Source of the DNA: a virus
Taxonomy: Duplodnaviria; Heunggongvirae; Uroviricota; Caudoviricetes
Virus record (IMG/VR): IMGVR_UViG_2537561935_000012
Direction: 5' to 3' (one strand)
Length of the DNA: 64,000 nucleotides
Shown: in pieces, positions 27,059 through 56,735 of the stretch
Layout of the letters: every line of letters starts with the position of its first letter
How positions within the stretch are numbered: the first letter of the stretch is position 1
Notes under the pieces: generated by a model
Told to the model about the DNA's origin: nothing
The model's database searches: none
What the model saw: the letters and a program-made list of their open reading frames with translations, nothing else
Made by a program: the position numbers and the translations under genes

Positions 27059-27134
27059 TGGTGGCCCCTACCGGACTTGAACCGGTGACCGTGCGATTAT
27101 GAGTCGCCAGCTCTAACCACTGAGCTAAAGGGCC
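27059..27134 (-). tRNA. tRNA-Ile2/Met-like, anticodon CAU
   Basis: 76-nt cloverleaf; loop CTCATAA; GGTTCAAGTCC T-arm; encoded CCA; close to E. coli ileX. Confidence 0.85.
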
Positions 27135-28565: not shown

Positions 28566-28641
28566 TGGTGCCGATTAACGGACTCGAACCGCTGACATCC
28601 TGCTTACAAGGCAGGCGCTCTACCAACTGAGCTAAACCGGC
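28566..28641 (-). tRNA. tRNA-Thr, anticodon UGU
   Basis: 76 nt; D-arm GCTCAGTTGGTAGAGC; loop CTTGTAA; encoded CCA. Confidence 0.85.
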
Positions 28642-28643
28642 AT

Positions 28644-28719
28644 TGGCGATGGTGGATGGATTTGAACCATCGACCCGTTGATTAACAGTCAACCGCTCTA
28701 ACCGCTGAGCTACACCATC
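28644..28719 (-). tRNA. tRNA-Asn, anticodon GUU
   Basis: 76 nt; loop CTGTTAA; T-arm GGTTCAAATCC; encoded CCA; 2 nt from tRNA-Thr. Confidence 0.85.
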
Positions 28720-39223: not shown

Positions 39224-39242
39224 AAGTGACTTTCAATAAAAT
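39224..39242 (+). promoter_or_regulatory. candidate late promoter
   Basis: AAGTGACTT-tcaa-TAAAAT about 50 nt before the structural gene start. Confidence 0.45.
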
Positions 39243-39293: not shown

Positions 39294-41000
39294 TTGAGTA
39301 ACTTACGCGAATACCAGAATCGTATTGCAGATATCGCAAAACGCTCTAAAGCTGTGCTTGGCTGGGCAAGCACTGCGCAGTTCGGTACTGATAACCAATT
39401 CATTAAAGATGATGCCGCGCGTGCCGCATCTATCCTTGAAGCTGCACGTAAAGACCCGGTTTTTGCGGGTATCTCTGATAATGCCACCGCTCAAATCGCT
39501 ACAGCGTGGGCAAGTGCACTGGCTGACTACGCCGCAGCACATAAATCTATGCCGCGTCCGGAAATTCTGGCCTCCTGCCACCAGACGCTGGAAAACTGCC
39601 TGATAGAGTCCACCCGCAATAGCATGGATGCCACTAATAAAGCGATGCTGGAATCCGTCGCAGCAGAGATGATGAGCGTTTCTGACGGTGTTATGCGTCT
39701 GCCTTTATTCCTCGCGATGATCCTGCCTGTTCAGTTGGGGGCAGCTACCGCTGATGCGTGTACCTTCATTCCGGTTACGCGTGACCAGTCCGACATCTAT
39801 GAAGTCTTTAACGTGGCAGGTTCCTCTTTTGGTTCTTATGCTGCTGGTGATGTTCTGGACATGCAATCCGTCGGTGTGTACAGCCAGTTACGTCGCCGCT
39901 ATGTGCTGGTGGCAAGCTCCGATGGCACTAGCAAAACCGCAACCTTCAAGATGGAAGACTTCGAAGGCCAGAATGTACCAATCCGAAAAGGTCGCACTAA
40001 CATCTACGTTAACCGTATTAAGTCTGTTGTTGATAACGGTTCCGGCAGCCTACTTCACTCGTTTACTAATGCTGCTGGTGAGCAAATCACTGTTACCTGC
40101 TCTCTGAACTACAACATTGGTCAGATTGCCCTGTCGTTCTCCAAAGCGCCGGATAAAGGCACTGAGATCGCAATTGAGACGGAAATCAATATTGAAGCCG
40201 CTCCTGAGCTGATCCCGCTGATCAACCACGAAATGAAGAAATACACCCTGTTCCCAAGTCAGTTCGTTATCGCGGCTGAGCACACGGTACAGGCGGCGTA
40301 TGAAGCACAGCGTGAATTTGGTCTGGACCTGGGTTCCCTACAGTTCCGCACCCTGAAGGAATACCTGTCTCATGAACAGGATATGCTGCGTCTTCGCATC
40401 ATGATCTGGCGTACTCTTGCGACCGACACCTTTGACATCGCTCTGCCGGTTAACCAGTCCTTTGATGTATGGGCAACCATCATTCGTGGCAAATTCCAGA
40501 CTGTATATCGCGACATTATTGAGCGCGTTAAATCTTCTGGTGCGATGGGGATGTTTGCTGGTGCTGATGCAGCATCTTTCTTCAAACAGTTGCCGAAGGA
40601 TTTCTTCCAGCCAGCCGAAGACTATATCCAGACTCCGTATGTTCACTACATCGGTACCCTGTTCGGTAACGTGAAAGTGTACGAAGTACCTGCTGGTATT
40701 TGTAAGAACTTAACGACAGAGAACATTCAGTTCAGCTCGATGGATGTGCTGTGCTACGTCCGTGATGAAAATCCGGGTAAAGCAGGCTTCGTGACTGGTG
40801 ATGCTGTCCCGGCTATCCCGTTCCAGCATCCGACCACTCCGGCGCTGGTCAACCGTACCACACTGTGGGGTTCGGCTATCAACGATATGCACCCACGCAA
40901 CGGCGCTGATTACTTCACTCGTGTAACGCTGACAATGGCCAAAAAAGGCGGGCTTAACTTCATTAGCGGCGACACGATTGATGCCGGTGACTCTGAGTAA
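39294..41000 (+). CDS. phage structural protein, possibly major head protein
   Basis: TTG start after AAGGAAG RBS; first gene after parS; function by context only. Confidence 0.4.
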   Translation: MSNLREYQNRIADIAKRSKAVLGWASTAQFGTDNQFIKDDAARAASILEAARKDPVFAGISDNATAQIATAWASALADYAAAHKSMPRPEILASCHQTLENCLIESTRNSMDATNKAMLESVAAEMMSVSDGVMRLPLFLAMILPVQLGAATADACTFIPVTRDQSDIYEVFNVAGSSFGSYAAGDVLDMQSVGVYSQLRRRYVLVASSDGTSKTATFKMEDFEGQNVPIRKGRTNIYVNRIKSVVDNGSGSLLHSFTNAAGEQITVTCSLNYNIGQIALSFSKAPDKGTEIAIETEINIEAAPELIPLINHEMKKYTLFPSQFVIAAEHTVQAAYEAQREFGLDLGSLQFRTLKEYLSHEQDMLRLRIMIWRTLATDTFDIALPVNQSFDVWATIIRGKFQTVYRDIIERVKSSGAMGMFAGADAASFFKQLPKDFFQPAEDYIQTPYVHYIGTLFGNVKVYEVPAGICKNLTTENIQFSSMDVLCYVRDENPGKAGFVTGDAVPAIPFQHPTTPALVNRTTLWGSAINDMHPRNGADYFTRVTLTMAKKGGLNFISGDTIDAGDSE

Positions 41001-41060: not shown

Positions 41061-42650
41061 ATGTCTCAATATTCAATTCAACAGTCATTAGGTAATGCAT
41101 CCGGCGTCGCGGTTAGCCCGATCAATGCCGATGCGACGTTATCTACCGGTGTTGCATTAAATAGCAGCTTGTGGGCTGGTATTGGCGTATTTGCGCGTGG
41201 CAAGCCGTTTACTGTTCTTGCGGTTACTGAGTCCAATTACGAAGATGTTCTCGGCGAACCGCTGAAGCCGTCTTCCGGCTCACAGTTCGAACCAATTCGC
41301 CATGTATACGAAGCTATTCAGCAAACGTCTGGTTATGTTGTTCGCGCTGTTCCGGATGATGCGAAGTTCCCGATTATTATGTTCGATGAATCAGGCGAAC
41401 CGGCTTACAGTGCGTTGCCATACGGTTCTGAAATTGAACTTGATAGTGGCGAAGCCTTTGCTATCTACGTTGATGATGGTGATCCGTGTATTTCACCTAC
41501 CCGTGAGTTAACCATCGAAACGGCAACAGCGGACAGCGCGGGTAATGAACGCTTCCTCTTAAAACTGACCCAGACGACTTCGCTCGGCGTGGTAACGACC
41601 CTGGAGACACACACTGTGTCTTTGGCGGAAGAAGCGAAAGATGACATGGGCCGCTTGTGTTATCTGCCTACGGCTCTGGAAGCCCGTTCTAAATATCTGC
41701 GCGCGGTTGTTAATGAAGAGCTGATTTCGACAGCGAAAGTAACAAACAAAAAATCGTTGGCGTTCACTGGCGGTACCAACGGCGATCAGTCGAAAATCTC
41801 AACCGCTGCGTACCTGCGTGCGGTGAAAGTGCTGAACAATGCGCCGTACATGTACACCGCTGTTCTCGGCCTGGGGTGCTATGACAATGCGGCGATCACT
41901 GCGTTAGGTAATATCTGTTCTGATCGCCTGATTGATGGCTTCTTTGATGTCAAACCGACATTGACGTACACGGAAGCGATCTCTGCTGTTGAAGATACCG
42001 GTTTACTTGGTACCGATTATGTAAGCTGTGCTGTCTATCATTTCCCGTTCTCCTGCAAAGACAAATGGACCCAATCCCGCGTGGTCTTCGGTCTGTCTGG
42101 CGCGGCGTATGCGGCGAAAGCTCGTGGCGTCAAGAAAAACTCCGATGTCGGCGGTTGGCATTACTCACCGGCTGGTGAAGAACGTGCCGTCATAGCTCGT
42201 GCATCACTTCAGCCGCTGTATCCTGAAGACACCCCGGACGAAGAAGCTATGGTCAAGGGCCGACTCAATAAAGTATCTGTAGGTACTTCGGGCCAGATGA
42301 TCATCGATGATGCTTTAACTTGCTGCACGCAGGACAACTATCTGCATTTCCAGCACGTCCCATCCCTGATGAACGCAATCAGCCGTTTCTTTGTCCAGTT
42401 AGCCCGACAGATGAAGCATAACCCGGACGGCATTACTGAGTCTGGCCTGACTAAAGGGATGACCAAACTTTTGGATCGCTTTGTCGCCTCCGGCGCTCTG
42501 GTGGCTCCTCGTGATCCTGATGCTGACGGTACAGAACCGTATGTGCTGAAAGTTACGCAGGCGGAATTCGATAAATGGGAAGTAGTCTGGGCCTGCTGCC
42601 CGACTGGCGTAGCCCGTCGTATCCAGGGCGTACCGCTGCTTATTAAGTAA
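41061..42650 (+). CDS. phage structural protein, possibly tail sheath
   Basis: 529-aa ORF; size and context only. Confidence 0.35.
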   Translation: MSQYSIQQSLGNASGVAVSPINADATLSTGVALNSSLWAGIGVFARGKPFTVLAVTESNYEDVLGEPLKPSSGSQFEPIRHVYEAIQQTSGYVVRAVPDDAKFPIIMFDESGEPAYSALPYGSEIELDSGEAFAIYVDDGDPCISPTRELTIETATADSAGNERFLLKLTQTTSLGVVTTLETHTVSLAEEAKDDMGRLCYLPTALEARSKYLRAVVNEELISTAKVTNKKSLAFTGGTNGDQSKISTAAYLRAVKVLNNAPYMYTAVLGLGCYDNAAITALGNICSDRLIDGFFDVKPTLTYTEAISAVEDTGLLGTDYVSCAVYHFPFSCKDKWTQSRVVFGLSGAAYAAKARGVKKNSDVGGWHYSPAGEERAVIARASLQPLYPEDTPDEEAMVKGRLNKVSVGTSGQMIIDDALTCCTQDNYLHFQHVPSLMNAISRFFVQLARQMKHNPDGITESGLTKGMTKLLDRFVASGALVAPRDPDADGTEPYVLKVTQAEFDKWEVVWACCPTGVARRIQGVPLLIK

Positions 42651-42659
42651 GGAAATACA

Positions 42660-43475
42660 ATGAGCAAAAACTTTTTTCAATCCGGGGCATTTTTGGGGAA
42701 TGGACTGTCTCGTTTCGCTTTGAACTCTGATCCTGTGCAGTTGATGGAGTCTGCCCGAGCAAGCGCCGAACCGACAACAGATCCGGTTATTAATAATAAT
42801 CCGGAACCGGAGGCACAGACTAACGATAACGTTCCATCTGCCACGGCTCCTGAGCAAATCCTGGAAGGGAAAGACGGTAAAGAATGGACCGTCGAACAGG
42901 CGCACCAGATGATTCTGGAAGCTGCAAATCGAAGTGCTATGCAGAATGCGTTGAGTGATGCGGCCGACGCCGTTTTCGCCTGGGCTGATAGCGGTGATCT
43001 GACTTTCGACTCCCTTGATGGTTTCGTTCAGGCTATCGCTGGTATCTCTGATGACGACGACTCCGAAGTTACAGAAGAACAGGACGATGCCTATAACGAA
43101 GCATGGGCAAATGTTGCTGACTTCCTCGCAGCATGCGGTGTAGATGATGACCTGATCGAAGCACTGGCTGACGATGAAGACGACGACGCAGCTGCTGATG
43201 TTGGTGCCTCTATCGCTGGTTTAGATAGCGACGACCGTGACGAACTGGAAGCGGCGTTTGTTGTTGCTGGCACTTCTGATGAAATGCTGACTGAAGCATT
43301 TAAGAAGGTTGTTCGTAACGGTGAGATCAAACTCATCCGTAAACGCCTGCGTAAAAAACGTCTGACTGCGGCTCAAAAATCGGCGCTGAAAAAAGCGCGT
43401 CGAAAAGCCCAGACCGGTGCGGCAAAACTTGCCCGCAAAAAGTCAATGAAACTGCGCCGTAAGCGCCTTGGCTAA
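42660..43475 (+). CDS. acidic protein with strongly basic C-terminal tail
   Basis: 271 aa; Asp/Glu-rich core, last about 45 aa Lys/Arg-rich. Confidence 0.5.
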   Translation: MSKNFFQSGAFLGNGLSRFALNSDPVQLMESARASAEPTTDPVINNNPEPEAQTNDNVPSATAPEQILEGKDGKEWTVEQAHQMILEAANRSAMQNALSDAADAVFAWADSGDLTFDSLDGFVQAIAGISDDDDSEVTEEQDDAYNEAWANVADFLAACGVDDDLIEALADDEDDDAAADVGASIAGLDSDDRDELEAAFVVAGTSDEMLTEAFKKVVRNGEIKLIRKRLRKKRLTAAQKSALKKARRKAQTGAAKLARKKSMKLRRKRLG

Positions 43476-43510: not shown

Positions 43511-44092
43511 ATGGCACCTATACCTTATGGGGTTTACAGCCAGGCTGACGGTGTATCGCCATTTCTGAAAGTTACTTTAACGAACTCTCAGTACCAGGTT
43601 ACCGGATATATCAGCCAGGGGGCAGCAATGAACATGGCCCAGAATTGGGAAGCGCCGTTTACCGGTATGTCCATGGGGTCTGTTGCTGGTGCCTTCAGTG
43701 GTTTTGCGCAGGTTGGTACTGAAACAACGTCGGTTGCCCGTTGGAATAGCTTAATGGTATGGGAAGGGGGGACACCGCCGACTTTCACGCTGCCAGTAAC
43801 TTTCATCGCTTTGTTTGACCCATTCACGGAGGTTTCAGGAGCTATCGCCGCATTGTCAGCGATGATTAGCCCGGAACTTAAAGATGCCAGTATTGGTGGT
43901 CGAATCCCGGAGCGTGTGACGCTAAACATTGGTCGCCGGATCAACATCATTGATGTCGCTATCCAGGACATAAGTTTCGATCTCGATGCGCCCAGGGACA
44001 GCAATGGGCATTTCCTGAAAAACACCGTCAACCTCCAGTTGACCGGTTCTTCGATATATAACAGCTCCGATATTGTTCGGGCGTTCCAGTAA
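43511..44092 (+). CDS. phage structural protein
   Basis: 193-aa ORF. Confidence 0.45.
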   Translation: MAPIPYGVYSQADGVSPFLKVTLTNSQYQVTGYISQGAAMNMAQNWEAPFTGMSMGSVAGAFSGFAQVGTETTSVARWNSLMVWEGGTPPTFTLPVTFIALFDPFTEVSGAIAALSAMISPELKDASIGGRIPERVTLNIGRRINIIDVAIQDISFDLDAPRDSNGHFLKNTVNLQLTGSSIYNSSDIVRAFQ

Positions 44093-44103
44093 AAGGATTT
44101 TAT

Positions 44104-44613
44104 ATGGGGCACAATAACACTAAGGGAAACCGTAAATTTATTAAGGGCCGCTATACTGCCAACGCGGCCAAAGGCGAACGACTGGTATCTTCTGAATTCC
44201 AGCTCACTTTTGCAGGCCATGAAGATATCAGCGTACTGGTTCGCACGTCGCAAATTCCTGAAATGACCCGCGAGGATGTGGAGGACTATGGTCCGAATGG
44301 TGTGAAGTTCAACCAGCACGGTCCAATTCGAAACTCTGGGGAAATCCAGGTCCAGTGCGTGGAGACTATCGAAGGCGATATTCTTCAGTTCATTAAAGAT
44401 CGCATTGCGGCGAAGGACTATGTTGATATCACGATGGCTGCTACCCCTGAATCCAAATCTTCCGGGGTTAACGCTGTGACAAAAGCTGCTACAACAATTG
44501 AAATGTTGGACTGCAAAATCTACAGTGATGCAATCGACTTTAGTACCGAAGATGTGACTGCCGCTGTGCGCCCGTCACTTCGTATCGTCTACAACTGGAT
44601 TGAGTGGGATTAA
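44104..44613 (+). CDS. phage structural protein, possibly tail tube
   Basis: 169-aa ORF followed by a terminator. Confidence 0.4.
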   Translation: MGHNNTKGNRKFIKGRYTANAAKGERLVSSEFQLTFAGHEDISVLVRTSQIPEMTREDVEDYGPNGVKFNQHGPIRNSGEIQVQCVETIEGDILQFIKDRIAAKDYVDITMAATPESKSSGVNAVTKAATTIEMLDCKIYSDAIDFSTEDVTAAVRPSLRIVYNWIEWD

Positions 44614-44633
44614 GAGTCATCCCTTGTATTTTA

Positions 44634-44660
44634 AAGCTCCTTCGGGAGCTTTTTTATTTG
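44634..44660 (+). terminator. rho-independent terminator
   Basis: aaagctccttcgggagcttt hairpin plus T-run. Confidence 0.65.
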
Positions 44661-44729: not shown

Positions 44730-44885
44730 TTACCTTTCAGATTCGTAGGCTGTGAAGACAGTGACCTCCGTCTGGCCGGTTCGGATTCGTACCTCGCAGA
44801 GGTCTTTCCTCGTTACCAGTGCCGTCACAATGACGGTTAAACAGATGACGATCAGAGCGATTAACATCGCTTTTTGCTGCTTCAT
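44730..44885 (-). CDS. hok: Hok/Gef-family type I toxin
   Basis: 51 aa, MKQQKAMLIALIVICLTVIVTALVTRKDLCEVRIRTGQTEVTVFTAYESER; matches Hok pattern ..TRK.LCE.R.R.G..EV..F.AYES; below track size cutoff. Confidence 0.7.
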   Translation of the reverse strand: MKQQKAMLIALIVICLTVIVTALVTRKDLCEVRIRTGQTEVTVFTAYESER

Positions 44886-44943
44886 AGCCTGCTTCTCCTT
44901 GACCTTTTGGTCGGTAAGAGGCTAATCTACGTATGCTAAGCAT
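44737..44943 (-). CDS. mok: Mok-like overlapping reading frame
   Basis: 68-aa ORF that starts upstream of and overlaps hok in another frame. Confidence 0.45.
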   Translation of the reverse strand: MLSIRRLASYRPKGQGEAGYEAAKSDVNRSDRHLFNRHCDGTGNEERPLRGTNPNRPDGGHCLHSLRI

Positions 44944-45066
44944 AGATATGGCCTCAGATTAATGTTAAGCGTCTTGCAGGACGCGTAATGTTATCTGGGG
45001 CTTTCTTCTATCTGCTTTTCGGGTAATGCCTGAAGCAGATAGCCTCAAGCACCCGCAACGATTGTA

Positions 45067-48479: not shown

Positions 48480-48640
48480 CGTAAGTTGATAAACAACCTG
48501 CGACCCGCTGCTAAACAGGTGGCAGGACGTGACGGGGTTAGCAGACTGGCACTTACGAAACCAGCAGGCCGAAGCCTCCCCATCACGCCCCACCATAATT
48601 CGGGCGTAACGTGGTTTACGGACACAAAAATACCGCAATA
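48480..48640 (-). ncRNA. c4: c4 antisense repressor RNA region (approximate)
   Basis: GC-rich hairpins between the operator and icd; boundaries not resolved. Confidence 0.3.
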
Positions 48641-48797: not shown

Positions 48798-48893
48798 GCT
48801 TGTTTAATAAATGCACAATTGGATCTAATAACCTCTTTTTTTTAAAGGCGAAAATATGTACCCTAAATGAGTTATAAGGCAGGTGAGGTTATA

Positions 48894-49385
48894 ATGAGAA
48901 AACTATTACTACCGTTATTATTTATGGCTGGGACTGTTAATGCAGCATCAAGCGTGAAGGAGATTTGTACCGATTATACGAAATACCTTGGGCACGTTTA
49001 CGGCTTTGCTGTCAGTCAAGACGAATCCATGCGCAAGAAGTTACTGTCAGATATGAAACGTCTTAAACTTTCTGAAGCGATGGTGCAGCAAGAACTATAT
49101 AAAGTCGCAACCAACGAAAATGCTAAATATCAATATTCTCGCCTATTAAATCCCGACGCAAACGAGATCAATCGAAGCACTTTCGATTATATGGTAAAGG
49201 CATGCGAAACCGCTCCTGATTTTGCTATCCCTAGCTGGGGTGTGCTGGTGGCGAGCAATGCCGTTAATAAAGAAGATGTTGGAAGAAATGGCATTGACTC
49301 AATAAGAAATGCCCCAGGAATGCGCCATCAAAACGTACAGGGTACGCTTGAAGAACGAGCCAGGGGGCCGGGTGTAGCCCCATAA
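48894..49385 (+). CDS. secreted protein with Sit-like C-terminal motif
   Basis: signal peptide MRKLLLPLLFMAGTVNA; C-terminus NAPGMRHQNVQGTLEERARGPG; low GC. Confidence 0.55.
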   Translation: MRKLLLPLLFMAGTVNAASSVKEICTDYTKYLGHVYGFAVSQDESMRKKLLSDMKRLKLSEAMVQQELYKVATNENAKYQYSRLLNPDANEINRSTFDYMVKACETAPDFAIPSWGVLVASNAVNKEDVGRNGIDSIRNAPGMRHQNVQGTLEERARGPGVAP

Positions 49386-49473
49386 TTTAATAAATAATAT
49401 TAAATTCTCTGGGCATAGTGGATCTAACAATATGGACTATGCCTATAATATCTAAAAACAAAAGGATAAAAAT

Positions 49474-49980
49474 ATGAAATTGTATAAGTCATTGTATAGC
49501 TTTTTATTAATGTCCTCTTTTCTGCCATTATCAGCAATGGCAGGTTCTACCGTTTGGACGGTAGGAGGGGAGCAAGGGTGGAGAGAAATCTCTGCAACCA
49601 ATGACGATGGTTACACAATTAACTTTTCTTGTGATGCTGGAGCAAGGGAAGGTTCAGAAGATCATATCGCTGGAAGAAATTTGTATGTAAGCGGAGGAAA
49701 AGAGAATGCCGATTTTTCTACACGCGACACAATATCACGTAAAGCAGATGTAATTACTTTAATTGTTGGCCCGGATAGTTTTAATATTGGCACGCAAAAC
49801 ACTGCTCCTAATCGTAGGGAATGGTATTCATTTTGGAAGGCAGTGTCATCTACAAATGAAAAAAACATAGATGTATATATCGGTTCGAGTCGAATCACAT
49901 CATTCACTCTGGATGGTATTTCCAGTATTTATACAGAAGCTAAAAATGACGGGTGTTTAAAACAAGATGACGGTGAATAA
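49474..49980 (+). CDS. secreted/periplasmic protein
   Basis: 168 aa; signal peptide ending SAMA; low GC. Confidence 0.55.
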   Translation: MKLYKSLYSFLLMSSFLPLSAMAGSTVWTVGGEQGWREISATNDDGYTINFSCDAGAREGSEDHIAGRNLYVSGGKENADFSTRDTISRKADVITLIVGPDSFNIGTQNTAPNRREWYSFWKAVSSTNEKNIDVYIGSSRITSFTLDGISSIYTEAKNDGCLKQDDGE

Positions 49981-51040
49981 AGTGAAGGATATTAAACACA
50001 TTTCGCTTAACTCTAATAATAAAGCTGAAGGCACTGCCTTTTATGATTATTTAAATGAAATTAAAGGAGTGAGGCATAAAAAGATAAGTGGTTTATTAAA
50101 TTCAGAATATATTTACAAGAGTTTAGTTAAACAGTTTGGAACAGTTAAAAAACAAGAATTAATTAATGATTGTTTTCGAAAAGAACTTGAGTCTTTACCA
50201 AAAGTTACGAGAATTGCACACCAGTTTCGTGAACAAATGGTATTTTTACAGAAACAGTATCAGGCGGCTTTTCCCAGTGATGCAAATGAGCATATTCAAA
50301 TAATTAAAAATCAAGCTGAAATGGCTATGCCGTTACGAAAACACTCAGAAGCCATTAATAAGATAGCTGGCTTAAATAATATGGAGGAGGTATTTAAAGA
50401 ATTACACTCTAATATAAATTACAAAATTAAGATAAGCAAAGATATTAAAGAAATAATAAAGCAGTATAATAAAACAAGAAGTGTATTATTAGAGCAAGTA
50501 GTAGAGCTTGGGCTTGTTACTATCGCGCAGGCTTATGCTAATGATTCTATAAAATCAGCGCATACCGAAAGTGAGCATCAAAACAAAGGATTTAATAAAT
50601 CTAGTTCGACGTTTTTTGATTCATTTAAGGCGCTTCCTTCTCCTATTCAGATCTTCCTTCTGTGGATTTTTTATCAAGTGGTGCTTGGCGCTATAACTGA
50701 TTATGCAAAAGAAAAGACATTATCGCAAATTTACAAGATGGAATCATATCTTCTATCTCTAAATGAGGATAAGCCAATATCTAAGCAAAAGCTAACACAA
50801 GAAAATAAAGATATTCAGTGGGAGGATCTTAATAATTTTAGAGCTATAACAGGTGATAACGTAAGGTTGCATGTCGGCCCTTCTTTAAATAGTGAAGTGA
50901 TTGAATGCATTGGCAAAAACACAATTGTTGCTATTTTAGATAAGAAAGATCGTCAATGGCTTTACGTGCAGGTTAAATCAGGGGATGAGTTTATTACTGG
51001 TTGGATTACACGAACATACACAAAGCCTCTTAAGGCTTGA
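49967..51040 (+). CDS. membrane-anchored protein with C-terminal SH3b-like domain
   Basis: 357 aa; TM helix IQIFLLWIFYQVVLGAI; C-terminal NVRLHVGPS...WLYVQV...GWI. Confidence 0.55.
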   Translation: MTVNKVKDIKHISLNSNNKAEGTAFYDYLNEIKGVRHKKISGLLNSEYIYKSLVKQFGTVKKQELINDCFRKELESLPKVTRIAHQFREQMVFLQKQYQAAFPSDANEHIQIIKNQAEMAMPLRKHSEAINKIAGLNNMEEVFKELHSNINYKIKISKDIKEIIKQYNKTRSVLLEQVVELGLVTIAQAYANDSIKSAHTESEHQNKGFNKSSSTFFDSFKALPSPIQIFLLWIFYQVVLGAITDYAKEKTLSQIYKMESYLLSLNEDKPISKQKLTQENKDIQWEDLNNFRAITGDNVRLHVGPSLNSEVIECIGKNTIVAILDKKDRQWLYVQVKSGDEFITGWITRTYTKPLKA

Positions 51041-52397: not shown

Positions 52398-53279
52398 ATG
52401 CTTTTACCTCTTTTCCCGCTACCATCGCGGCCAACTGAATTGATCCAGTTCCGTCAGCCAAATATTGCTGATGCGATGCGTTTCAACTCGATAACACCGG
52501 AGGAACAAGAACAACAGACAACGGCGTATTTAAAAGCCTTGCTGGCTGAACCCGCGAAACATGATCCCCTGACATGGACGGCGCAGGACCGGATTACCGC
52601 GTTATGGTGGATATTTACCGGCTCCCGTGAAACACCGGTCGAGACATTCACCTACACCTGTAAACATTGCGGTAAAGAGCATTATTACGATTGCGATATG
52701 AATGCTCTGGCTGAAGATATCCAGGTCCTGGAAGTGGAACCGTTCATTGACGATATTGAGGTGTCTGTAGAGGGAGTGCCTTATCAATGGCGTATCGTGC
52801 CGCTTGATGGTTGGGCAATGGAAATGCTGGAGATGCGCCGTGCAGCATTGCCACCTGAAGACGACGCGGAATTCAAAGAAGCGATCGTTGATTTGCGTTT
52901 TTGGGAATTCGCTTATCAGTGTGAGCTTTATAACGATGTTAGTGGTACTCGTGAAGATCAGGCTGAGCGTCGTTATGAAACGATTAAACGGATGGCCATT
53001 GATACTGAATTTATGAAGCTGGCGGCACACATCCGACTGGCTCATGAAAAGCTCGAACATGGTTTACCATGCTACATCGATAAAGGTGAAATGCGTCTTC
53101 GTCTCCCGCCGCACAAATGCCCAAACCAGGATAAAAAGGAGTCCACAGAGGGTGCGTTTACCCGTCTGTGGGTGCCCTTTCGGGCTACCGACTTCATTCC
53201 ACAGGTGGGGATTGAAAAGCTATCAGACCTTAGTATCCAACCTGGTTTTGTATGGGGGTATACCGATTCAGGACGCTGA
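52398..53279 (+). CDS. phage tail morphogenesis protein with Cys motif
   Basis: 293 aa; CKHCGKEHYYDCD. Confidence 0.45.
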   Translation: MLLPLFPLPSRPTELIQFRQPNIADAMRFNSITPEEQEQQTTAYLKALLAEPAKHDPLTWTAQDRITALWWIFTGSRETPVETFTYTCKHCGKEHYYDCDMNALAEDIQVLEVEPFIDDIEVSVEGVPYQWRIVPLDGWAMEMLEMRRAALPPEDDAEFKEAIVDLRFWEFAYQCELYNDVSGTREDQAERRYETIKRMAIDTEFMKLAAHIRLAHEKLEHGLPCYIDKGEMRLRLPPHKCPNQDKKESTEGAFTRLWVPFRATDFIPQVGIEKLSDLSIQPGFVWGYTDSGR

Positions 53280-53360: not shown

Positions 53361-56300
53361 ATGGAAAGAAAAAACGCCAACATTGACGATGTTATAAGGA
53401 CAGTTGAAACCGCCAGCGCAAAAGAGCTGGAAGAGCTTGCAGGTATCCGGGAAGCTGTTGAAGATTTGAAAGGGGGACGCGTTGCAACTGTTGATCCTGT
53501 CTCTCACAGTGTGTCGGCATTAAATCGCACAATCGAAAATTCCAGGCCAGACTTTGTGGCCAATGCGCCATCAGTGGCCCCTATTGTTGAGGCAATGAAA
53601 CGGCTTAATTTAGGGGACGTTTCTCGTGTAGTTCAGGAGGATGTTGCTCTACAGGAACCGCAGGCCAAATCAACTACGCGAAAGGGTAAAAAACGACGCA
53701 AGAAGGCTATAACAGAAGATGTAAAGGCGCAACGGACCGAAGCAGCCGAACACGCTCGCGAAATGTTCGGTCAAAAAGGCGGTGCGCAAAAAAGCCAAAA
53801 CCAACGCGATGCGCGTGGTCGTTTTATTGGAAAGCCAGGGAGTAAGGCCGCAGCGGAAGATGCCCGTGCTGAACGTGCTGAAAAGGCCAGGCGCAAAGAG
53901 GATGATGAGCGTCTAAATGCTGAATCAGGTTTATTAAAAAAACTGTCAAAAGTAGCTGAAGGCATAGGTAACCCTTCAGAGACTCGCGCCGTCGATGCGT
54001 TAGGTTATGCCGTTGCTGGTCCATTGTGGGCCGCAGGGAAGGAGCTTGGCGGGATATCAAAAGAAGTTGGTGGATCGCTTAATGGTGCCAGAAAGTCTAT
54101 TGCCGATGTGATTCGTGGCAATGACGATAACAGCCGTAGAAAAGGTTTTTTTAGGCGTAAATCGCAAAATAGTGCCGATGTCGTTCAGGTTAACACCCAA
54201 AAACGGACGGTTCAGGAACTTCAGGATCAGACCAGCGAAATTAAAGAGGGCAATGACAAGATTCTCAGCGCCCTTGATCAGATAGCCAAAAACACCGGGA
54301 AAAAGAAGGGCGGCTTGCTGTCCAAATTATTTAGCCTGTTAGGGAAGGGGGCCGGTGGCGTCGCGTCGTTGTTAATGGGGCGTGGCATGCTGAAAAAAGC
54401 TGGAGCACTCGCTTTTGGCGCTCTGGGGGCAAAGAAACTTGTAGGAATGCTACGCGGTGGTGGCAAGAAGACTCTCGCCCATGAAGGCGGAGATTTGGCT
54501 GCCCGGGCAGCAGGTAAACTTGGATTAAAGGCAGTTGGTAAAGGGGCGTTACGCGCAATTCCCCTAGTCGGCACAGTGGCTGGAGGGATTTATGATGCGG
54601 TAACCGGTTGGAATGATACAGAAGCGCAACGTCGAGCGTTTGGGCTTAAATCAGGACAAGATCCATCATTCCAGCAAAAAGCCGCTTATACGTTAGCCAA
54701 TGTTCTTGATTTGGGGGGACTGGTATCTGGTATTAGCAGTGCTATTGGTGATGTTCTCAAATCACTTGGATTTGAGGATATCGGCAATATGTTGCAATCA
54801 TTTTCGACGGAAAGTATTGCCCAGGCCATTGATAGTGGGATTACCAACTTAGAAACATATATTTCTAACCTTGGCGACACCATTTCTACCAAGTTCGATG
54901 ATTACACAGCAAAGATTGGTGATGCTGTTTCAGCATGGTTTAGCGATACATCTAATAAGCTGCTTGAAAAGCTGGATGCCATCAAAGACTTCTTTACTGT
55001 CGATAACCTGAAACAGGTTTTCAGTGATGCAATTGATAGTGCAATTGATTTCATTAAGAACCCAGGGAAACACATTAAAGAGGCAGCTAGTAATATTTGG
55101 GATGGGGTTAAAAATTTACCAGGTAAAGCATTAGATGCAGCGGTTGATGCCGTTAAAAATACCCCTGCGGCAATGATTGTATCAAAAATACCCAATCCGA
55201 TCGGCGAGGCTAATGCGAAAGAAATCACTCCAGAGTTAAAAGCTCCGGTTAATAGCCAGCAGGGGACATCTGATTCTAAAGCTGAATCCGATGCCAAACA
55301 GACTAATATTGCTGCCCGCGTGATAAATGCGGCCCTGGATATGGCGAAAGATAGCAATAAAACAGTTAAAGAAACTGCTAATCAGATTATCAATGCAAAT
55401 GCCGTAGAAACAGGAAATAAAGCAGCACAAACAATTGATGCTGCCTTGGGCCAGTCTGCTACAGGTAAGGAGGAAGCATTAAGTGCATATGAGATAGATA
55501 AACGTCGATTTAACAATGGCAAGGATGTTTCTTTGCCAAAATTAAATGCTGCCGGATACCAATGGATTTCTGACAATGCCGATTATTTTGATGAGCTTGA
55601 ACGTAAGTATGGGCTTGAAAAAGGGATTCTGTCAGCAGTTGCATCCGCAGAGTCTAGTGCAGGCCAGAGAACTGGAAATCCAGTAGACAAAAACGGGAAC
55701 AAACTTTCATCTGCCCTTGGGGCTTTTCAGATCACTAAAGGTACAAGGGAGGATCTTGGACTCAGCGATGCTGATGCCATGGATACACGAAAAGCAGCTG
55801 ATGGTGCCGCCAGATACCTAAGTATGCTGATGAACCGTTATAACGGTGATCAGGGTCGTGCAATAGCTGCCTATCATGCTGGTATGGGGCATGTTGATAA
55901 GGGGAGAGTAGTCGCCGGTACCGGCGAATATGTTACTCGCGTCAGAGGGTATCAGCAGATGCTCAATAATGGTGCCGTTTATGGCTCTAAGGTAGATCAT
56001 AGCGCACCAGCAATTCACGAAAAGATACCTGATAACGCTGTTATCGATCAGTCTACTGGCCTGGCGTTTACCCCTGGTGATAGCCCGTTTGAGAAAGGCG
56101 GTCTGGTAGACAAAATTGGCAATGCTGTTGGTGTTAACGATCTGGTCAACAAATTCATGAATGGCCGGGGTATGCGTCGGGAAGTCGTTCAGGGAACGCT
56201 CGAAGAACGTGCACGAGGGAAGGGGACCGCAACAGCAGCTGGCAATGTGTATGTTGATACTCCGATGCCAGTTGAAGAGGCGCGTCCGGTGGCCAGCAAC

Positions 56301-56735
56301 TCAAGTTACTTTGACCAACTCGGCGCACAAATGGGGATTGATGGACTATTCTATAAACTCCGCAACTCGCCGGGGATGCGGAAAAATAATGCGCCTGAAC
56401 CAGCCTCCACGTCCCTGGTGACGACTGCCGCCAACGATTTGCAGCAACCAACCGGTCGTATGCAGATAGACGGACAGGTTATTAGTGATCTTGGCGGCTC
56501 CGGTGCCAAGCCGACAATGCAGTTGGCTGATAATACCGTTTCACTTGATGGTGAAACGAAGCGGCTGTTTGCGCAGATGACCTCATTGCTTGCCAGGATT
56601 GAAGAGCACACTAAAGACTCGGCGAAAGGCCAGGGAACTGTCGTAAAGGTCAGCACGCCTCAACCGGGCGTTATGCGCACGGTGCCACTGTCAATTGATG
56701 ATCCGTTGATGAATGACTACGCGAGAGTTGATTGA
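53361..56735 (+). CDS. sit: tape-measure/injection protein with lytic transglycosylase domain (Sit)
   Basis: 1124 aa; Gly-rich segments; SLT-like region AFQITKGTREDLGL...AAYHAG. Confidence 0.85.
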   Translation: MERKNANIDDVIRTVETASAKELEELAGIREAVEDLKGGRVATVDPVSHSVSALNRTIENSRPDFVANAPSVAPIVEAMKRLNLGDVSRVVQEDVALQEPQAKSTTRKGKKRRKKAITEDVKAQRTEAAEHAREMFGQKGGAQKSQNQRDARGRFIGKPGSKAAAEDARAERAEKARRKEDDERLNAESGLLKKLSKVAEGIGNPSETRAVDALGYAVAGPLWAAGKELGGISKEVGGSLNGARKSIADVIRGNDDNSRRKGFFRRKSQNSADVVQVNTQKRTVQELQDQTSEIKEGNDKILSALDQIAKNTGKKKGGLLSKLFSLLGKGAGGVASLLMGRGMLKKAGALAFGALGAKKLVGMLRGGGKKTLAHEGGDLAARAAGKLGLKAVGKGALRAIPLVGTVAGGIYDAVTGWNDTEAQRRAFGLKSGQDPSFQQKAAYTLANVLDLGGLVSGISSAIGDVLKSLGFEDIGNMLQSFSTESIAQAIDSGITNLETYISNLGDTISTKFDDYTAKIGDAVSAWFSDTSNKLLEKLDAIKDFFTVDNLKQVFSDAIDSAIDFIKNPGKHIKEAASNIWDGVKNLPGKALDAAVDAVKNTPAAMIVSKIPNPIGEANAKEITPELKAPVNSQQGTSDSKAESDAKQTNIAARVINAALDMAKDSNKTVKETANQIINANAVETGNKAAQTIDAALGQSATGKEEALSAYEIDKRRFNNGKDVSLPKLNAAGYQWISDNADYFDELERKYGLEKGILSAVASAESSAGQRTGNPVDKNGNKLSSALGAFQITKGTREDLGLSDADAMDTRKAADGAARYLSMLMNRYNGDQGRAIAAYHAGMGHVDKGRVVAGTGEYVTRVRGYQQMLNNGAVYGSKVDHSAPAIHEKIPDNAVIDQSTGLAFTPGDSPFEKGGLVDKIGNAVGVNDLVNKFMNGRGMRREVVQGTLEERARGKGTATAAGNVYVDTPMPVEEARPVASNSSYFDQLGAQMGIDGLFYKLRNSPGMRKNNAPEPASTSLVTTAANDLQQPTGRMQIDGQVISDLGGSGAKPTMQLADNTVSLDGETKRLFAQMTSLLARIEEHTKDSAKGQGTVVKVSTPQPGVMRTVPLSIDDPLMNDYARVD

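Follow-up and report, generated by a model that had tools for sequence, protein, structure and literature searches.

Gene 21 of a P1-like phage-plasmid as a candidate contractile-tail assembly factor absent from the finished virion

The open reading frame (ORF) at positions 42660..43475 of the viral record IMGVR_UViG_2537561935_000012 (+ strand; ATG to TAA, 271 residues plus stop) is, by its sequence, gene 21 of a P1-like phage-plasmid, and the 64,000-nucleotide stretch that we analyzed, hereafter the window, is on the same grounds a variant of P1. We propose with moderate confidence that its product, gp21, serves as an assembly chaperone or a transient scaffold for contractile tails of the P1 type and does not stay in the virion, because the protein is made late and is probably well translated, its gene lies between the sheath and tube genes even in distant relatives, it is linked to the tail genetically, and it is absent from the particle. 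The absence from the virion and the genetic link to the tail come from the literature, and the identity of the gene, the charge pattern, the conservation, the synteny and the absence of relatives among characterized proteins from the present analysis. Gene 21 has long been known and is not a new element. The novelty here is modest and lies in the recognition that an essential-looking tail gene of a model phage, one whose virion has been inventoried both by proteomics and by near-atomic cryo-electron microscopy (cryo-EM), encodes a protein that is missing from that virion, bears the incorrect database label 'tail tube protein', and belongs to a large orphan family of its own.

In a liquid chromatography-tandem mass spectrometry (LC-MS/MS) study of P1 virions purified on CsCl, 23 structural proteins were identified, among them the products of ORFs 54 (BplB), 55 (PmgG), 57 (gp22) and 58 (gp23), but not that of ORF 56, which is gp21 (PMC9024508). 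Since gp21 is predicted to give 4-5 tryptic peptides of suitable size, an abundant virion form of the protein would have been detected. In the tail structure of 2023 and the whole-virion structure of 2026, BplB forms the tube, Tub is the tube initiator and PmgG is the tube-linking ring, and gp21 is not listed (PMC10304247, PMC12810830); nor does the text of the proteome paper (PMC9024508) or of the whole-virion cryo-EM paper (PMC12810830) mention it. An earlier note on this DNA, made from the sequence alone, had judged that the protein was no typical capsid or tail subunit, and its absence from both the LC-MS/MS table (PMC9024508) and the cryo-EM protein list (PMC12810830) agrees with that judgment. 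The same note had offered a packaged internal protein as one option, for which the published data on P1 virions, in which gp21 is undetected, give no support.

The genetic evidence points to the tail. Gene 21 was found to be essential in a genome-wide CRISPR interference (CRISPRi) screen, with an efficiency of plating below 1.2e-7, and the authors refer to a mutant study of 1983 (PMC10695390). The GenBank note on gene 21 of P1 reads 'baseplate or tail tube'. This wording goes back to amber mutants that made heads but no tail structures. Both 'baseplate or tail tube' and the database label 'tail tube protein' claim more than has been established; the actual tube protein is BplB.

At the nucleotide level gene 21 of the window is 97-99% identical to gene 21 of P1, P7, SJ46, RCS47 and other P1-like phage-plasmids (19 P1-like records), and the protein is about 96% identical to that of reference P1 and 98.8% identical to that of other P1 isolates. 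It matches PHROG 1053 ('unknown function') over residues 10-270 with E=6.9e-99, and it is the same gene as P1 gp21 (P1_gp056, YP_006524.1, PHROG 1053), with the same length and neighbours and without any substantive difference. The order in reference P1 (NC_005856) is LP23, 23 (major capsid protein), 22 (tail sheath), 21, pmgG and bplB, and the earlier note was right in placing the ORF within the structural operon, which in the window runs LP23-23-22-21-pmgG-bplB-terminator, all on the + strand. The late promoter LP23 (39224..39242; -22 box and -10), whose 19-nt sequence is unchanged from NC_005856, starts the operon 23-22-21-pmgG-bplB. Its first gene is gene 23 (39294..41000), the major capsid protein according to the P1 annotation and PHROG 1014 (E=1.6e-252), with a TTG start and a Shine-Dalgarno sequence; it is followed by gene 22 (41061..42650), the tail sheath according to the P1 annotation, PHROG 1036 ('tail sheath', E=1.5e-231) and the cryo-EM model of gp22 (PMC10304247). 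On the other side of gene 21 lie pmgG (43511..44092; PHROG 1114), encoding the hexameric tube-linking protein of the baseplate-tube junction, a role known from cryo-EM (PMC12810830), and bplB (44104..44613; PHROG 1120 'tail tube'), the last gene of the operon, encoding the major tail tube protein, for which a cryo-EM model exists (PMC10304247). The operon is closed by a strong intrinsic terminator (44633..44660) with an 8-bp G+C-rich stem, AAAGCTCC TTCG GGAGCTTT, followed by TTTTATTT.

No convincing internal promoter or terminator was found between LP23 and this terminator. Since LP23 is intact and no convincing signal intervenes, gene 21 is a late gene that is co-transcribed with the genes of the most abundant virion proteins. 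Its ATG lies 9 nt from the stop of the sheath gene and is preceded, at a distance of 7 nt, by an AAGGAA Shine-Dalgarno sequence that equals the one of bplB in quality and surpasses the one of pmgG. The strength of this site suggests that gp21 is synthesized in substantial amounts.

The charge pattern of gp21 is unusual within the window. Residues 1-220 carry a net charge of -40 (50 D/E vs 10 K/R), residues 226-271 a net charge of +22 (22 K/R and no D/E), and the isoelectric point (pI) of the whole protein is 4.5. The two acidic strings quoted in the earlier note are found at residues 131-143 (DDDDSEVTEEQDD) and 169-179 (ADDEDDDAAAD), so its description of an Asp/Glu-rich centre and a Lys/Arg-rich end is accurate. 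When all open frames of at least 80 codons on both strands of the window were ranked, gp21 was found to contain both the most basic 45-residue stretch (+22, the runner-up having +15) and the most acidic 100-residue stretch (-33, the runner-up having -23). The maxima reached in 20,000 shuffles of the gp21 sequence were +13 and -27, and none of the shuffles attained the observed values. The segregation of charge is real and far beyond chance.

Four regions can be told apart in the protein. The N-terminal peptide (residues 1-33; 42660..42758, +) has the semi-conserved motifs F.SG..L....FA and hydrophobic-[LF]-E-S-A, of which E30 is nearly invariant; it is predicted to be flexible, with a predicted local distance difference test (pLDDT) score of about 50. 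It is followed by a Pro/Ala/Glu-rich linker of variable length (residues 34-74; 42759..42881, +), predicted to be disordered (pLDDT 46-61), in which 10 of the 41 alignment columns are filled in at least half of the homologues. The third region (residues 75-211; 42882..43292, +) is an acidic, all-helical domain that holds both Asp/Glu runs and is predicted by AlphaFold2 with a pLDDT of 84-95; its helices span residues 78-111, 116-126, 139-158, 163-171, 175-186, 190-203 and 207-211, and in the alignment of homologues G160 is invariant and W108, D171 and D175 are nearly so. The basic C-terminal module (residues 212-271; 43293..43472, +) is made up of a short strand pair, VVRNGEIKLI, predicted with low confidence, a K/R run, and two helices at residues 237-249 and 253-270. 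The AlphaFold2 model, built on an alignment of 33 sequences, thus has a disordered part (residues 1-74, pLDDT around 50), a confident acidic helical part (residues 75-211) whose core exceeds a pLDDT of 90, the strand pair, and two basic helices.

Homologues were collected with a word-index search, which found 85, and then with a hidden Markov model (HMM) scan of 1.84 billion cluster representatives. The family comprises 601 representatives (clusters at 50% identity) at E<=0.001, 391 of them at E<=1e-10. Almost all relatives are 190-300 residues long, and among the 150 matches listed nearly every one reaches the C-terminus. The division of charge is shared: the basic module has a net charge of +16 to +24 in almost all full-length homologues, and 131 further representatives have a median net charge of -26 in the body and of +18 in the last 45 residues, where acidic residues are nearly always lacking. 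Conservation is highest in the basic C-terminal 60 or so residues, where the mean majority fraction is 0.71, against 0.19-0.52 elsewhere (consensus KVxRxGKV...SxAQKxALKKARxKAxTxxAKxxRxKSMKxRKxxG), which argues for a specific binding partner rather than for generic charge. Three relatives (P0188, P0217 and P0220) have the module in duplicate, so that it behaves as a discrete and separable unit. In two others (P0179 and P0189) an N-terminal hydrophobic-[LF]-[ED]-[SN]-A motif recurs 4-7 times within long acidic linkers. The doubled modules and the repeated motifs suggest that these proteins may bind an oligomeric partner in a multivalent fashion.

The position of the gene is strictly conserved. 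We compared 20 related loci, from Enterobacterales, Vibrio, Thaumasiovibrio, Shewanella, Vreelandella, Marinobacterium, Kiloniella, Desulfobacteraceae and Mailhella, many of them on contigs of about 75-95 kb that resemble P1-type plasmid prophages. At every one of the 20, the gp21-like gene lies directly 3' of a P1-type sheath gene and directly 5' of pmgG/bplB, and the order is throughout capsid, sheath, gp21-like protein, PmgG, BplB, PmgC, Tub and PmgB, with the tape measure gene next. Among deposited phage genomes, tblastn found a homologue of gp21 in 22 records and of BplB in 22, with identical counts by organism and host. Given this strict synteny and the co-occurrence with BplB, gene 21 is a core gene of the P1-type tail module and not a mobile accessory gene. 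Mobile accessory genes are the usual carriers of anti-defence functions.

Searches for similarity to proteins of known function gave nothing of significance. Pfam had no match for gp21 and no consistent match across the 33 homologues, and in PHROG scans of the homologues PHROG 1053 alone was significant. One weak match to phrog_1346 'tail protein' (E=0.041) was rejected as compositional, as were two non-significant single-member matches to 'head scaffolding protein' PHROGs (E of about 0.02). Sequence-profile searches of the PDB, in which the query was either the entire family or just its C-terminal module, returned only chance-level matches (E>=0.59), to bL21m (E=1.1) and to RNase P Rpr2 and INO80B (E=0.6-0.8). 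With the AlphaFold2 model as query, Foldseek found no match at E<=0.001 in the PDB or in BFVD, the best having E=1.7 and E=0.2. A profile search for the basic module in other protein contexts retrieved only fragments or short versions of the gp21 family, and the module HMM found no paralogue in the window besides gp21 itself. The idea that the N-terminus of gp21 mimics the N-terminal arm of the sheath protein, 'LGN' being present in both, was dropped, as the resemblance is not conserved in relatives. The gp21 family, which is large and has a conserved basic module, is thus, as far as such comparisons can detect, without a relative among characterized proteins. Clear homology to a scaffolding protein or tail chaperone of known function, which the earlier note had named, together with a lack of anti-restriction activity, as speaking against its interpretation, was likewise not found in Pfam, in PDB sequence profiles, or by Foldseek against the PDB and BFVD.

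How might such a protein act in tail assembly? Made late, from an mRNA that also encodes the capsid, sheath, tube-linker and tube proteins, gp21 would act while the baseplate and tube are being built and would then be left out of the finished particle. In the P1 tube the lumen is reported to be negatively charged and the stacking of rings to be electrostatic, an acidic beta-hairpin 'plug' facing an N-terminal 'rim' (PMC10304247). The bipartite gp21 could work through charge complementarity with such surfaces. Its basic module, with the strand pair and the basic helical hairpin, may dock on an acidic surface of a tube-family protein, that is BplB, PmgG or Tub; the negative lumen is one candidate surface, and another is the conserved acidic RExVE hairpin by which successive rings are plugged together. 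A basic surface of a partner may in turn be shielded by the acidic helical domain, either the N-terminal rim of the tube protein or the tape measure protein Sit. By these contacts gp21 could block the premature polymerization of subunits, or else bring subunits to the baseplate, and it would be displaced while the rings stack. The charges of the possible partners are in line with this: the N-terminal arm of BplB has a net charge of +5, its hairpin contains REDVED, within a RExVE motif that is conserved in relatives, and the tail proteins of the window other than gp21 all have pI values of 4.4-5.4 except Sit, the only basic one (pI 9.0). Any specific choice of partner nevertheless has a low probability at most.

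Several observations weigh against a tail-assembly role. Both the CRISPRi and the amber data may stem from polar effects on pmgG and bplB, which lie downstream and are essential; CRISPRi is polar by nature. No homology or fold similarity of gp21 to known tail chaperones was seen in Pfam, in PHROG, in PDB profiles or by Foldseek against the PDB and BFVD. The slot directly 5' of the tape measure gene, where a tail chaperone would be looked for, is held by pmgB; since PmgB sits there, is acidic and essential, and is absent from virions, gp21 need not be the tape-measure chaperone. Finally, absence from the inventories is not the same as absence from the particle: the LC-MS/MS study also missed the expected PmgA, UpfC, gp5 and gp26 (PMC9024508), which were later placed in the virion by cryo-EM (PMC12810830), so that non-detection is compatible with gp21 being a low-copy virion protein, and neither the tape measure protein nor what fills the tail lumen was resolved by cryo-EM, the centre of the baseplate being represented by low-resolution density only (PMC12810830).

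These last points are the strength of the alternative that survives best, although we regard it as rather unlikely, namely that gp21 is a low-copy component of the virion that lies within the tail lumen or the baseplate cavity beside the tape measure protein, with its basic module on the acidic wall, and is ejected at infection. Besides the four cryo-EM-placed proteins that escaped LC-MS/MS and the lumen contents, tape measure protein and baseplate centre that cryo-EM did not resolve or showed at low resolution only (PMC12810830), the acidic character of the tube lumen (PMC10304247) and the long disordered N-terminus that AlphaFold2 predicts for gp21 are in line with it. However, gp21 went undetected in CsCl-purified virions in spite of its 4-5 suitable tryptic peptides, it is not listed in the cryo-EM model, and its strong ribosome-binding site and high-copy gene neighbours suggest abundant synthesis, and an abundant virion protein would show. 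A more elaborate version, in which the basic module anchors a few copies on the acidic inner wall of the unusually long tube of P1 and the acidic domain, ejected before the DNA, acts as a polyanionic decoy for DNA-binding defences of the host, strikes us as very improbable; if it were true, gp21 would correspond, in a phage, to the effectors that contractile injection systems carry in their lumen.

It could also be that the basic tail binds nucleic acid, in the manner of the extension of a ribosomal protein, and for example tunes the translation or the stoichiometry of the late tail operon, in which case the tail defect would be indirect. The 22 K/R among the 46 residues of the tail are suited to this, and the only weak sequence matches of gp21, to bL21m, Rpr2 and INO80B, are to nucleic-acid-binding proteins. 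All of these matches have E>0.5 and are at chance level, however, the attached domain of net charge -40 would oppose the binding of a polyanion, and assembly factors typically show just such a strict placement in the tail module across phylogenetically distant phages. We consider this possibility quite improbable.

A tail-assembly factor that is not retained has well-known parallels in other phages. The chaperones gpG and gpGT of lambda, and likewise E and E+E' of P2, are needed for tail assembly and are absent from the virion, one part binding the tape measure protein and the other the tube subunit. gp21 resembles them in being a non-virion protein, in its tail-gene context and in its two-part build, but it has no sequence or fold similarity to them, and its gene lies between the sheath and tube-linker genes instead of in the slot between tube and tape measure, where pmgB is found. 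Chaperones of this type come as two products by way of a programmed -1 frameshift. In gp21 the basic module is in frame with the rest of the protein, and the longest alternative frame on the same strand within the gene is 42 codons, so that gp21 would seem to be made as one product in one frame; the reading frames give no hint of programmed frameshifting, although slippery heptamers were not searched for.

PmgB, proposed to be the tape measure chaperone of P1 (PMC9024508), makes a closer comparison within the phage itself. Like gp21, it is acidic (net -18, pI 4.8), has about 290 residues, is essential for the tail, belongs to the same conserved module and was not detected in virions (PMC9024508); unlike gp21, it belongs to PHROG 1854 and has no polybasic tail, and the two are unrelated in sequence (BLASTP E=0.64). 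In the window pmgB occupies 52398-53279 (+), and its product has the fourth most acidic 100-residue stretch. P1-type tail modules thus appear to carry two unrelated acidic proteins, gp21 and PmgB, that are not kept in the virion.

The other parallel lies in head assembly. Scaffolds of the P22 gp8 type, which serve in building heads and are encoded directly 5' of the capsid gene, are acidic proteins of elongated, helical shape. Through a basic helix-turn-helix at the C-terminus they bind the structural subunit electrostatically, and they do not remain in the completed particle, from which they are expelled. gp21 shares with them, in build only, the charge logic and the basic two-helix C-terminus, but its gene is in the tail module, where the sheath gene separates it from the capsid gene, and no homology was detected. 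gp21 is a member neither of the lambda gpG/gpGT family nor of the P22 gp8 family. The likeness raises the question of whether gp21 might be the missing internal head scaffold of P1, binding the capsid interior as gp8 does and leaving before DNA is packaged. It is acidic and helical, it ends in two basic helices, mature virions lack it, its gene shares an operon with the capsid gene, and no separate scaffold has been identified in P1 (PMC9024508, PMC12810830). Yet all 20 loci place the gene between the sheath and tube genes and never next to the capsid gene, the phenotype-based GenBank label concerns the tail or baseplate, and P1 is stated to do without a head scaffold of its own, the N-terminal domain of about 120 residues that is cleaved from its capsid protein, gp23, being proposed for that role (PMC9024508, PMC12810830). 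A head scaffold is therefore very improbable. Of the options in the earlier note, scaffold comes nearest to our own conclusion, with the difference that gene position and GenBank label point to the tail and not to the head.

The weakest explanation is that gp21 is a DNA-mimic protein with an anti-restriction or anti-defence function, as the earlier note had also suggested. Dimers of T7 Ocr and of ArdA imitate bent B-DNA, and both proteins are either early or transferred. gp21 is like them strongly acidic with a low pI, its acidic domain has a very high density of negative charge, and P1 does invest in anti-restriction through its Dar proteins (PMC12810830), but gp21 is late and unpackaged, so that it could not be in place before restriction (six Dar proteins were detected in P1 virions, gp21 was not; PMC9024508), it has a +22 tail, it is encoded by a syntenic core gene of the tail module and not by a variable accessory gene, and it matches neither Ocr, ArdA nor any other solved or predicted viral protein in sequence or fold (PDB, BFVD, Pfam), which leaves this option with the slightest chance of all, unlikely rather than disproved. 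Taken as a whole, the earlier interpretation holds where it saw a scaffold-like protein that is no structural subunit, and lacks support where it proposed a DNA mimic or a packaged protein.

If gp21 is indeed a tail-assembly factor, the label 'tail tube protein', which is misleading and by now widespread in databases, would be corrected, and a type of chaperone or scaffold that does without a frameshift would be added to the known ways of building contractile tails. Such a role could also be relevant to how about 53 rings come together in one tube while runaway polytubes are avoided. In practical terms the impact is modest, and the mechanism outlined above is one that we infer.

A separate observation concerns the length of the tail. 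The tape measure protein Sit (53361-56735, +) has a helical part of about 750 residues (PMC9024508), which as a straight alpha-helix, at 1.5 Å per residue, would extend over about 1,100 Å. The P1 tube consists of 53 rings of about 40 Å each, about 2,100 Å in total (PMC10304247). Since the helix falls so far short of the tube, Sit alone may not fully explain how the very long tail of P1 is measured.

Elsewhere, the window departs from reference P1 at two places. Between bplB and repL it carries a complete hok/sok toxin-antitoxin module (44730-45054, - strand), consisting of a Hok ORF (44730-44885, -; Pfam HOK_GEF, E=2.4e-22) and a sok RNA (44880-45054, -; Rfam RF01794, 114.9 bits), whereas reference P1 has pmgF, rlfB and rlfA in this slot. 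A C4 antisense RNA lies at 48515-48600 (-), and downstream of it, at 48867-51040 (+), different ORFs are found where reference P1 has simA, simB and simC; one of them has a weak match to PTP-like phytase (26.8 bits, just below the cut-off), and another encodes a protein of 357 residues with a C-terminal SH3_3 domain. Three tRNA genes on the - strand (27062-27134, 28569-28641 and 28647-28719; Rfam RF00005) are as expected for P1-like phages.

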